A DNA stretch of 62,013 nt, the filler included, from Rhabdomonas costata (Eukaryota): NCBI GenBank assembly GCA_019059605.1. It is 30 parts of 30 records of this genome, joined end to end, with 100 filler letters (N's around TTAATTAATTAA, not from the genome) between each part and the next. Parts side by side here need not be neighbours in the genome. Positions count along the whole stretch, not along the records: positions 35,196 to 37,165 come from JAHMHO010006856.1; positions 37,266 to 39,236 come from JAHMHO010006857.1; 28 more parts are not named here. The stretch is one strand, 5' to 3'. This document shows positions 20,901 to 39,236 of this stretch, in pieces (the stretch's first letter is position 1; every line of letters starts with the position of its first letter). Under the pieces are notes generated by a model. It was not told where the DNA came from and searched no databases. It saw nothing but the letters and a program-made list of their open reading frames with translations. The translations under genes and the position numbers were made by a program.

Positions 20901-22201
<1,301 letters not shown>

Positions 22202-35681: not shown

Positions 35682-37289
35682 CTGGTAGTTGGTATAGCTG
35701 GTAGTTTTAATATAGTTTTAATATATACCTACGCATAGTGCCCGGCTTTACAATAGCTGCTTTGATGCCTCCATCAGCGGCAGCGAATGAGCGGGGGATC
35801 GCCCCCCTCCCTCTCCCAAGTTGGACAAGGTTGGTACTGGAAGATGCTGAATTTCTTGCCCCATCATTGATTTTCCCGGGGAGTGGGGGACGCGTCCGGC
35901 TGAAGCTTGGTTTCAGTCTTGCAGAGACCTGAATGGGGATGGAGATGATCAACGATCACGCGGAAGTCAAACGCGAGTTAAACCCTTTTACAATGTAGTT
36001 GTCTTTCTCCCAGACGATCGCATCTGTCCTGCGGAGCGTTGTGAGACGATGCTGTTGTCCTCATTTTTGTTAATGAATGTTTGGGCCGCTTCCTGTTTTC
36101 CTTTACCTGGAGCTCATGGCAGATCCGGTAACTTTAAAGGATGTACCTCAATTCAACCTCTTGAAGGTTTCTTGCAGAGGGTGCAAGGCATTGCAGATCC
36201 TCCGGGTGGGGGGGGAGGCGTCCTTACTGCTCTGCACCATTAGACACAACTTTCTCAAAGTCGAACCAAATTCTACACCTTAAGACCTTTTCTGGTGTTC
36301 GCCACCCTTCGCTTCGATTTCACAGAGCGGTCCTGTCCCTCCCTGACGCCGTCCGACCGGGCGTTCGGAAGATCCGTCTTGTTTTCTTTTGAACGCGACC
36401 TGGGGGTGGTGCCGGAACCTCTGAATGGTCCTTTAAATTCTTTGTTGAAGGTTCTTTAGAATTTTTAGGGCAGAGCAGAACCACTCCCGGTCGACTCCTT
36501 TTTTTCATGTGCCCTGATTTCCTTTTGTGTGCAGAGAAGGGCAAAGGCTGTCTTATGGTGAAGAGTTGGTTTGACCACGGAACTGCACAAAAATTTCTCC
36601 TCTTCCCGGTTTATTCAAAGTTCCTTGAAAACTGTCACAATGGTTCCCTGATGGTTGTCGGCAGCGGGCGCGGGTCAACGTTACCCAATAGTATTGTCTG
36701 GATGTGGGTCGTCTGAGGGTCTGTAGATCTCAGGTGGCTGCGTTTGCAGTTTCGCCTATTTCTCTGTGTTTGGCAAACTAAAACGCGACCACCAAAGCTT
36801 TTCAGCCATATGAAAGCCTTTGTGCGGCCTCTCGTGTTTTTTTTTTGCTGTTATTTTCAGCAGGAGCGCAGAAGCCTCTCTGCCACATACAAGCTTGCAC
36901 ACAATTTCTCCCGAGTACTTTCCCTCCATGTTATCTTTCGTTCCCTTGACTTCACACTTTTGGGGGATGGGTACCCAGTACTCCCAGCCCCCGCCGAATT
37001 CGTCGTCCCGGCTCCTCACCACTGCAACATGCCCGCTCCCACCAACACCTGCCGTCGTTCCTGCGGATGCCAGCCCTATCTGTGGTTTCCCGCGCCTTTT
37101 CCAGCCCCACAACCCGTTGCCATCGCTTACCTCAGAGGTGCCTGCAGCAAAGAGTGCCTTTACGANNNNNNNNNNNNNNNNNNNNNNNNNNNNNNNNNNN
37201 NNNNNNNNNTTAATTAATTAANNNNNNNNNNNNNNNNNNNNNNNNNNNNNNNNNNNNNNNNNNNNTTTGTTGTTGTATAGATGTAATTT

Positions 37290-37620
37290 AATTCAATATA
37301 AAATATTTTTACATTAAATTAGAACTTATAAAAATTTTATAAATGAATTCTAAACATAATTTTATTGCACAATTTTTGTAGTATTGTCTGTCGGTGCAAT
37401 TTGTGCATTTTGGAGCAATTGAATTCGGTGCCTATTTTTTCTTATTGTAAGAAAATAATTCATCTTTATAATTTTTATTTTATTATGTATTTGGTCTATT
37501 ATTAAAAATGATTTTTTTGACATCATTTACATCTTTAGAAAATCATGTCAATATGTTATTAAAGTTCAATTTACATCATTATTAATAAAATTATGCTTTT
37601 TAACTAAAGATCTAATGGTG
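37290..37620 (-). pseudogene. Decayed AT-rich ORF with a Cys cluster (KCTNCTDRQYYKNCAIKLCLE)
   Basis: One frame reads FSKDVNDVKKIIFNNRPNT**NKNYKDELFSYNKKK*APNSIAPKCTNC..., with in-frame TAA, TAA and TAG. Confidence 0.4.
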
Positions 37621-37952
37621 TTTATTAAAAACTGTAATTTTTTAATATATAAGATTAATAATAATCTTATTTATCAAAATTATAGGAGCATAATTTTTAG
37701 CACTATTTTGCACTTTATGCTTTTGGAAAATTTTCAAATTTAAATAAGACGAAATATAATTTGTATTTATTTTAAAATAACTTGAAAAATCAAGACGATG
37801 ATCTCGTCGACAGGAATTGTGTGTGTCGATACAAGAATTTTTGAAAAAAATTTTAAAAAATAATTTTCAAAATTTTTATTAAATTTTTAAAATAATAAAA
37901 ATCATTGTCATATTGTACATTCCACGATTTAATGTAATTATATCTATTATTG

Positions 37953-38017
37953 ACTATGTTACTGACTTGGTCATTCACTATGTTACTGACCAAGTCATTC
38001 ACTATGTTATTGATCAT
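37953..38017. repeat. 2.7 copies of a 24-bp tandem repeat whose cores are mutually reverse-complementary (hairpin); putative 3'-end signal
   Basis: ACTATGTTAC-TGACTTGGTCA-TTC / ACTATGTTAC-TGACCAAGTCA-TTC / ACTATGTTATTGATCAT; the hairpin starts about 45 nt past the stop of the R-M ORF. Confidence 0.75.
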
Positions 38018-38042
38018 ATATTGATACAAAATTTTTATTGTT

Positions 38043-39236
38043 TTACAAATTTGTTTTATAATCTATTTTTAATTTCATAAGTAATGTATTGTATTCTTTT
38101 TCTGTTTTTTTGATTTGTTCTTTTGCATTATTCACATAGTTAAAATCAAAATCTAACATTTTTATCACATCTTTATTTTTTGGTATTTTTATGACAATGT
38201 CTTTAATTGTTTCTTTTGTTATTCTTGGAACTATTGAACCATGAATCAATTCACAAAATTTTGATTGTATCGATTTTAAATAATAGTATAAATAATCAAT
38301 CTTCGTATACTTCGAGTCAATTACATAGACTTCATTATTCATTATTGAGAAATTTTTATCCATGTGTATATTTACTTTTCCAATCATTCCAATTATAATT
38401 AATTTTTTGGTATACATACATTCGTCCACATACAATATTTTATCACTGTTACTATAAAATGGATATTTTCCTTGATATGACGATTGAGATAATTTTATGT
38501 TTTTATTTCTTTTTTGATATGTTACACAATCTTCAAAAGTAAATGTATAACATTCTTCAATACTAATTAATGATTTTATTTTACATTGAACTATTGATTC
38601 AAATGATTCAACTGATTTTTTACTATTGTTTATAAATGTATAACATGAATGTAAATATAAAACTATATCTTTAATTTTTTCTTCAGATTTGGGATATGGT
38701 ATTTGAAAATCTTTTAATGTTTTTGGTGTCATATGTTTTATTGTTGAACCAGTCATCAAATTTAATAATTTATCTTTCATTGTCATTAAAATAAAAAATA
38801 TATATTGTGTTATTGTATTTGATTTTCCTCGTAAAAGAATATTGTCAGATGAACAACTAAATTCTCGATCTAGAAATAATGACCCATTACCTCCACTTCC
38901 TATTATTATTATATCTGTACCATTTCTATAATCTGCAACGTTGATATATTTTTTTGTTTCACAACTTGTATAAAAAAAATATTGTCCTTGATCAGTTGCA
39001 TCACTTGCTCTTCTTTTACTTTTTGGTAAAAATTCAACTAATTCATTTAGTGATTTAAAATCATAGTCATTTGAACATTTATTTTCTTCATTAATGTATT
39101 TTTTATAATTCAATGAATAATCTTTATTTTTTATTTCATTGTAATTTACTTCGAACAATAATTTCTCTTCAATATTTGTAATTTCATCTTTTTTATTTTT
39201 TGTTACATATAATTCAGAGAACTGAAACCACCAACA
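38043..39236 (-). CDS. 5'-truncated restriction-modification protein: N6-MTase (HsdM) C-terminus fused to a two-TRD HsdS-like specificity module; giant-virus-like
   Basis: The frame is open from the contig edge (..FSELYVTKNKKDEITNIEEKLLFEV..). EIKNKDYSLNYKKY resembles an HsdM tail. TRD1 ends TGSTIKHMTPKTLKDFQIPYP and TRD2 ends HGSIVPRITKETIKDIVIKIP, each followed by a helical spacer. Intronless and very AT-rich. Confidence 0.88.
   Translation of the reverse strand, partial: CWWFQFSELYVTKNKKDEITNIEEKLLFEVNYNEIKNKDYSLNYKKYINEENKCSNDYDFKSLNELVEFLPKSKRRASDATDQGQYFFYTSCETKKYINVADYRNGTDIIIIGSGGNGSLFLDREFSCSSDNILLRGKSNTITQYIFFILMTMKDKLLNLMTGSTIKHMTPKTLKDFQIPYPKSEEKIKDIVLYLHSCYTFINNSKKSVESFESIVQCKIKSLISIEECYTFTFEDCVTYQKRNKNIKLSQSSYQGKYPFYSNSDKILYVDECMYTKKLIIIGMIGKVNIHMDKNFSIMNNEVYVIDSKYTKIDYLYYYLKSIQSKFCELIHGSIVPRITKETIKDIVIKIPKNKDVIKMLDFDFNYVNNAKEQIKKTEKEYNTLLMKLKIDYKTNL

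Follow-up and report, generated by a model that had tools for sequence, protein, structure and literature searches.

The locus and its contig

The window analysed here is a 62,013-nucleotide stretch of DNA from the genome assembly of the eukaryote Rhabdomonas costata (GCA_019059605.1), and the gene under study is the 3′ part of a single-chain methylase-specificity (M-S) gene on its minus strand. The window is made up of 31 pieces of about 1.97-2.07 kb each, joined by 30 spacers of the form N44-TTAATTAATTAA-N44 (60 runs of N). The gene lies on a single separate contig (positions 37266-39236; 1,971 bp), which nothing ties physically to the pieces around it. Genes that stand side by side elsewhere in the window are likewise not genomic neighbours, the pieces being unrelated contigs of about 2 kb. 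The gene and its parts, including two target recognition domains (TRDs), are as follows:

38043-39236, minus strand: 3′ part of the M-S gene, 397 codons and a TAA stop; the 5′ part lies beyond the contig edge
39072-39236, minus strand: end of the HsdM-like methylase domain (residues 1-55), comprising its last beta-hairpin and a tail that includes YSLNYKKY; directly after the N6_Mtase domain of relatives in alignment A1
38685-39071, minus strand: TRD1 (residues 56-184; Pfam stretch 57-207), the best-conserved part of the family
38559-38684, minus strand: conserved-region helix 1 (residues 185-226), a helix in the model
38172-38558, minus strand: TRD2 (residues 227-355), more divergent; second Methylase_S stretch
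38046-38171, minus strand: conserved-region helix 2 and C-terminus (residues 356-397; model helix 362-391), with the motif IKIPKNKD

An earlier note on this DNA, made from the sequence alone, had described the contig as AT-rich (about 20% GC against about 50% elsewhere) and intronless, with a frame of about 390 amino acids open to the contig edge. The GC content of the contig is indeed 0.213, with a range of 0.16-0.30 across all its 150-bp windows, against 0.42-0.58 in 1-kb windows of the remaining sequence, and no junction with 50%-GC DNA appears in the 150-bp windows over the full contig. The open frame is also there, at 397 codons; at about 21% GC roughly 9% of random codons (about 1 in 11) are stops, so that a stop-free run of this length is not due to chance. 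The term intronless holds insofar as one uninterrupted frame is seen, and that frame is its sole basis.

Domain order and predicted fold of the window protein

The frame is the C-terminal half of an M-S fusion, as is evident from its fold, its domain order and its fusion junction. Pfam places Methylase_S in two stretches of the frame (E = 1.2e-23). Ahead of them, residues 1-55 form strands at 3-13 and 19-31 in the structural model and are up to 52% identical to relatives, and the tail EIKNKDYSLNYKKY aligns with the segment directly 3′ of the N6_Mtase domain in full-length relatives. The M-S junction itself (residues 4-80) aligns in 24 of 24 full-length relatives (alignment A1). Its family motif reads FS.L.V...YSLN.K.Y and then [FY][LMK]PKSKRxAS, with the reader in frame with the end of N6_Mtase, and the window protein has the same arrangement.

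TRD1 carries the conserved motifs LPKSKRRAS, FYTS, GSGGNGS, FSCSSDN and GSTIKH and has a median identity of 42% to relatives (best 55%, to P0005); at the DNA level this region is 65-72% identical to the viral loci L002, L017, L015, L011 and L004. The best identity of TRD2 is 46%, to P0036 and thus to a different protein from the closest relative of TRD1. Such a mosaic would be expected if reading domains swap between genes.

The AlphaFold model of the window protein, built with 108 aligned sequences, has a mean predicted local distance difference test score (pLDDT) of 91.6 and a predicted template modelling score of 0.81. Its chain begins with a beta-hairpin, which is followed by two globular domains, each with a long helix behind it (42 residues after the first, 30 after the second). 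A sequence search of the PDB with the window protein finds the HsdS subunits 1yf2 and 1ydx, and a Foldseek search with the model ranks the HsdS of M. genitalium first (1ydx, E = 1.7e-18) and also finds 1yf2; the next matches are the S subunits of PacII, EcoKI and EcoR124I and the Type IIB enzyme BsaXI. Alignment A1, Pfam, the model and Foldseek therefore all agree with the earlier proposal that an HsdM-like tail runs straight into two TRD-plus-helix units.

Relatives and their host affiliation

We searched protein collections with the window protein and recovered mostly M-S fusions. The search of longer proteins gave 157 matches at E ≤ 1e-3 (best, 39% identity over 97% of the query), and among the 120 matches listed of these 157, 108 combine N6_Mtase with Methylase_S, at lengths of 700-1,087 amino acids. 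The search of proteins of near-equal length gave 28 matches, led by fusions or pieces of fusions; plain S subunits were only the four weakest of the 28, with 24-28% identity over 36-55% of the query. An exhaustive HMMER search of 1.84 billion representatives yielded 1,847 matches, 63 of them at E ≤ 1e-30, and the top matches align through their C-terminal halves with 34-40% identity. Full-length relatives retain both catalytic motifs, DPFGGSGGF and NPPYGG.

With the junction motifs as search patterns, IMG/VR gave 210 candidate stretches, of which 102 encode a relative; 80 of these loci were kept (L001-L080; later counts of viral loci cover these 80). A further 20 loci from metagenomes are numbered L084-L103. 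The best E values of relatives are 6e-61 for the viral and 2e-58 for the metagenome loci. More than half of the viral loci (45 of 80) carry 'GVMAG' in their name. Two bins labelled as giant-virus (G001 and G002) were searched whole and gave four and three matches, respectively, to the capsid family PF04451 of nucleocytoplasmic large DNA viruses (NCLDVs), and relatives occur on viral contigs of up to 617 kb. The GC content of the viral loci has a median of 0.25 and a range of 0.165-0.437, and that of the closest metagenome loci (L084-L088) is 0.186-0.224.

A quick maximum-likelihood tree of 86 rows groups the window protein with P0002, P0163, P0003 and P0004, with the giant-virus metagenome-assembled genome (MAG) L005 next. 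The four nearest proteins come from unlabelled metagenome contigs. The sole bacterial row in the tree is a long branch placed elsewhere.

Some relatives have additional segments. In alignment A1, a C2H2-like zinc-finger segment is seen at the N-terminus of P0008, P0009, P0011, P0012, P0016, P0019, P0020 and P0024, and a SAP/Rho_N-like tail at the C-terminus of P0006, P0014, P0023, P0026 and P0030. Both segments are predicted extra DNA-binding modules, which bacterial HsdM proteins appear to be without. Eight loci hold an additional, shorter M-S paralog no more than 4 kb away from the main gene; one such paralog (L059:6052-7899, plus strand) encodes 615 amino acids with matches to both N6_Mtase and Methylase_S.

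A helicase gene linked to the M-S gene in relatives

In the 80 viral loci, clustering of every open reading frame (ORF) up to 4 kb from the M-S gene revealed a recurrent partner gene, present in 67 of the loci at a median gap of 90 bp. The partner is downstream and convergent in 36 loci, upstream and in tandem in 30, and upstream and divergent in one; a typical convergent pair is formed by the M-S gene at L003:4135-6873 (plus strand) and its partner at L003:6870-8948 (minus strand). Eleven of the 13 viral loci without a partner are cut short on one side, and the remaining two extend for 2.5 kb or more to either side. The partner was also found in 15 of the 20 metagenome loci; it is present downstream in L085 and absent downstream in L084. 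In the bins G001 and G002, all three strong partner matches adjoin an M-S-like gene, and the scores of other helicases there are much lower. The partner is dedicated to the M-S gene and is not a core viral helicase.

The partner proteins are about 700-790 amino acids long. Among 25 scanned with Pfam, 24 match ResIII, 18 Helicase_C, six T5orf172 and four MUG113; the last two families belong to the GIY-YIG nuclease group. Searches of the partners with HsdR and REase_I models gave no match. Weak matches were obtained to PbeA, to the helicase/motor part of the PADLOC model for Type IIG fusions of restriction enzyme and methyltransferase, to Cas3 and to the dnd restriction helicase. A sequence search of the PDB with the partner found nothing, and the AlphaFold model of the L009 partner is of low quality (pLDDT 64.5 overall and under 50 for residues 1-130). 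The putative assignment of a nuclease to the partner comes from Pfam matches in a minority of its members.

Two partner helicases are longer, at about 1,100 amino acids (L070:5148-8453, plus strand, and G002:C19:5981-9235, minus strand). The helicase of the former harbours an intein splicing domain together with a LAGLIDADG endonuclease, and the latter is a single frame of 1,105 amino acids with two separate profile matches.

Judged by their domains and linkage only, the M-S gene and its partner look like a rebuilt, ATP-driven, two-gene restriction-modification (R-M) system of Type I-like character. By comparison with full-length relatives, the N-terminal 400-600 residues missing from the window copy would comprise an HsdM-type helical domain and the catalytic domain with DPFGGSGGF and NPPYGG. 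The two TRDs, spaced by two long helices, would read a bipartite target, and the complete enzyme would methylate adenine at that target. The neighbourhoods of relatives suggest that the gene normally works with an adjacent superfamily 2 (SF2) helicase bearing a GIY-YIG-type (T5orf172/MUG113) N-terminal domain. Such a system would act as Type I or Type ISP enzymes do, with the methylase labelling the DNA of the virus itself and the motor-nuclease attacking any DNA without that label.

The downstream part of the contig and other features

The contig itself carries the methylase-reader part only. Between the stop codon and the other contig edge lie the following features:

37266-38042, no strand: ORF-free stretch of 777 bp up to the other contig edge, with no ORF of at least 60 amino acids
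37958-38002, minus strand: hairpin 41-85 nt past the stop codon (inverted repeat I2: 21-nt arms, 81% complementary, 3-nt loop)
37949-38013: tandem repeat of a 24-nt unit in 2.7 copies, which pair as the hairpin

No ResIII/Helicase_C partner with a T5orf172/MUG113 head was found in the six frames of the 777 bp downstream or elsewhere on the contig. Since the partner is absent from these 777 bp, that of the window copy, if present, would be upstream, beyond position 39236. The tree places the window protein in the half whose members have upstream partners, which mildly favours the upstream side; alternatively, this copy would be an orphan or belong to an insertion in decay. The earlier note had held that the gene would mean an R-M system associated with a eukaryotic cell. 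The contig does not bear this out, having only the specificity half of a methylase gene and no candidate restriction partner in the 777 bp downstream.

The six-frame pieces of the downstream stretch gave a best E of only 0.08 against 83 fetched loci. No tRNA was found in the contig, and no Rfam family reached the gathering score in the window.

The hairpin has a predicted RNA folding energy of −23.2 kcal/mol (z = −3.46), which one of 200 shuffles equalled. It is a possible signal for the 3′ end of the transcript, and it fits the 3′-end hairpins described for mimivirus-like viruses in the available part of PMC5871332.

On another contig, of about 50% GC, the frame at 21653-22201 (minus strand) matches the tubulin-tyrosine ligase family over a short segment (frame residues 36-67; E = 1.3e-4) that looks like one exon of a eukaryotic gene. 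This weak fragment is the sole hint of a eukaryote obtained from the contigs of the window.

Origin of the contig

The strong relatives of the window protein are M-S fusions that occur in GVMAG loci and in bins with NCLDV capsid genes; the gene therefore has an affinity with giant viruses, and its giant-virus origin has good support. We conclude that the contig probably stems from a mimivirus-like giant virus (Imitervirales-type), as a piece either of the viral genome or of DNA derived from it, and that it carries the 3′ half of a gene for a predicted single-chain N6-adenine DNA methyltransferase ending in a complete HsdS-like reader. Outside this contig, M-S genes of this type occur almost exclusively in giant viruses that infect protists.

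Several observations weigh against this conclusion or limit its reach. There is no viral hallmark gene on the contig, and one gene is not a genome. The earlier note had seen here a fragment of a giant virus that infects this host or is endogenised in it; its viral affinity stands, whereas its link to the host finds no backing in a contig that has neither a hallmark gene nor a junction with 50%-GC DNA. The protein databases searched carry no taxonomy, and the label 'viral' depends on the IMG/VR loci. The source lineage of the window protein is unrepresented in the collections searched (best identity only about 40%). Its placement in the tree has a value of 94 in the Shimodaira-Hasegawa-like approximate likelihood ratio test, unstarred and from a quick search, and the neighbours of its nearest relative (L084) include no viral hallmark and just a match to HNH_2. 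When searched with filters off, none of the six frames of the contig scored positively against a hidden Markov model of the partner family. Giant viruses of this kind do not usually have an ORF-free stretch as long as 777 bp; in the viral loci, ORFs of at least 60 amino acids cover 89% of bases, and 36 of 838 gaps are at least 600 bp long. The sequence AAAATTGA, which we take to be the mimivirus early-promoter motif, has three matches in the whole window against 3.94 expected by chance, and none in this contig. A search of the ESM Atlas by features returned generic bacterial HsdS clusters only, and the patterns used to scan prokaryotes (below) were derived from viruses and so biased against bacterial relatives. 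Because the catalytic half lies off the contig, methylase activity is not inferable for the window copy, and the available parts of the literature consulted gave no measured activity for any two-TRD member of the family.

Among the alternatives, the fragment might come not from a replicating virus but from giant-virus DNA that became endogenised in the nuclear genome of the eukaryote and is now decaying there. The contig was assembled alongside host contigs, and its ORF-free stretch, in which no remnant of the partner was found, sits where 36 of the 80 viral and 15 of the 20 metagenome loci have a convergent partner. Nevertheless, the M-S frame is intact over 397 codons and keeps the conserved residues of the family, the GC content stays uniformly at 16-30% without reaching DNA of 50% GC, and the half of the tree to which the window protein belongs has its partner upstream, which here is off the contig. 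We consider such a decaying insertion unlikely.

The contig might also come from an AT-rich bacterium (such as a mollicute, an endosymbiont or a contaminant) with a fused Type IIB/IIG-like or Type I gene, and the earlier note had named nesting in such a bacterium as a result that would refute its proposal. We scanned one genome per species for 185,579 prokaryotic species with peptide patterns taken from the junction motifs of the viral family. Only 3 of 98 pattern matches encode a relative, and each match is partial (E = 6e-17 to 9e-12, far from the values for the viral and metagenome loci); nesting in an AT-rich bacterium was not seen in these three weak matches to virus-derived patterns. The best of them, at L081:2481-6140 (plus strand) in a MAG of the Flammeovirgaceae, is a chain of 1,219 amino acids with HSDR_N_2, N6_Mtase/Eco57I and two TRDs, in the style of Type IIB enzymes. 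Fused two-TRD chains thus occur in bacteria, and the view that fused methyltransferase-TRD-TRD proteins are a feature of NCLDVs, although sound in that the strong relatives are M-S fusions in giant-virus loci, was too simple. A MAG of Malacoplasma (26.6% GC) gave a partial match with 32% identity over residues 63-219, and the bacterial clusters of the ESM Atlas search point the same way. On the other side, tblastn against 50,697 phage records and a search of NCBIfam for a family of the window protein gave no match, the window protein shares its methylase-tail junction and its TRD1 motifs with the viral family, and an ORF-free stretch of 777 bp would also be unusual in a compact bacterial genome. 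A bacterial source is accordingly a very unlikely rival. Immediately after the fused chain of L081, a putative endonuclease of the Uma2 family is encoded at L081:6203-6784 (plus strand).

That the gene belongs to a smaller mobile element of giant viruses or protists (a virophage, a polinton-like virus or a transpoviron-like episome) is hardly probable: the cassette stands in variable contexts and both orientations, with a second paralog at some loci, which suggests mobility, and R-M systems are among the mobile elements of giant-virus genomic islands according to the available part of PMC13620141, but viral contigs as long as 617 kb carry relatives, as do bins in which NCLDV capsid genes are present, and no hallmark of small elements was found beside them in the loci scanned.

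Returning to a giant-virus fragment as the preferred explanation, infection, a co-cultured contaminant and an insertion are not separable from the fragment alone. A fuller version is possible, which we put forward only tentatively. The contig would be a piece of a giant virus, or a recent and intact insertion of one, living with this eukaryote and belonging to an unrepresented lineage, and its M-S gene would be the methylase half of a working ATP-driven R-M pair with the motor-nuclease just past the contig edge. If the low-GC contigs are from a resident giant virus, this host would be linked to a poorly sampled viral lineage and to a widespread Type I-like pair of methylase and motor-nuclease. 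A resident virus with the pair would tie the viral system to a host that is culturable or sequenced, in which the methylation motif and the role of the system in conflict between viruses or between virus and virophage would become testable. Taken alone, the fragment is one divergent, truncated sequence that flags non-host, virus-like DNA in the assembly.

Comparison with known systems

The closest described systems are those of chlorarachniophyte giant viruses (PMC13196603, ISME J 2026). In the available part of that account, a 6-adenine methylase with a single Type I-like specificity domain (one TRD) is linked to 6-methyladenine (6mA) at CANNNNNNTG, and ORF 102 of ChlorV-3 is a methyltransferase with two specificity domains; its authors liken the fused methylase to Type I modification genes and to the Type IIB enzyme HaeIV. 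The likeness to the window gene, as far as that part of the paper describes it, is in a virus of the mimivirus lineage and in a single chain with a 6-adenine methylase followed by one or more Type I-like TRDs. The difference is in the truncation of the window copy, whose best relatives reach only about 40% identity, the comparison with ChlorV being one of descriptions and not of sequences. That part of the account mentions no helicase partner for the ChlorV methylases, a point on which its supplements may bear. The M-S fusion type is thus already in print (PMC13196603, to the extent available), and the window gene is a new, divergent and truncated member of it.

Other giant viruses offer more distant parallels. 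For Acanthamoeba mimiviruses, the available part of PMC7253447 states that no methylation was found and that only Type II targets were predicted, and the corresponding part of PMC5871332 ascribes 'partial restriction modification systems' to Bodo saltans virus. The available parts of the literature on HsdR, Type I restriction or a T5orf172 helicase in giant viruses or Mimiviridae contain no account of the two-gene pair that we could find, and likewise no measured activity for a pair of methylase and motor-nuclease.

The window protein resembles classical Type I enzymes (EcoKI, 2y7c; EcoR124I, 7bst; HsdS, 1ydx and 1yf2) in its TRD-helix-TRD-helix fold (Foldseek E = 1.7e-18 to 3.3e-9) and in the HsdM-type tail that precedes the reader, and PADLOC calls a full-length relative both MTase_I and Specificity_I. 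In contrast to those enzymes, M and S form one polypeptide here, with one methylase domain for two TRDs where the classical assembly has two (HsdM2-HsdS1), and the motor of relatives is a protein of about 700-790 amino acids with a T5orf172/MUG113-type head, whereas HsdR has a PD-(D/E)xK nuclease. The contig has no HsdR, and with S fused to M the gene does not encode the separate subunits of a Type I system.

Type IIB enzymes of one or two chains (BsaXI, 8w0p; HaeIV- and AloI-like enzymes; L081) share the fusion of a methylase with two TRDs, and the specificity chain of BsaXI matches the model (E = 3.3e-8). They differ in that the chain of L081 includes an N-terminal HSDR_N_2 nuclease and has no helicase neighbour, whereas the viral family pairs with a separate gene for an ATP-dependent motor; no nuclease family appears in the precomputed Pfam column of the 120 relatives listed. 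Type ISP enzymes such as LlaGI and LlaBIII combine a nuclease, an SF2 motor, a gamma-class adenine methylase and one TRD in a single polypeptide, whereas the system to which the window gene would belong has two genes and two TRDs.

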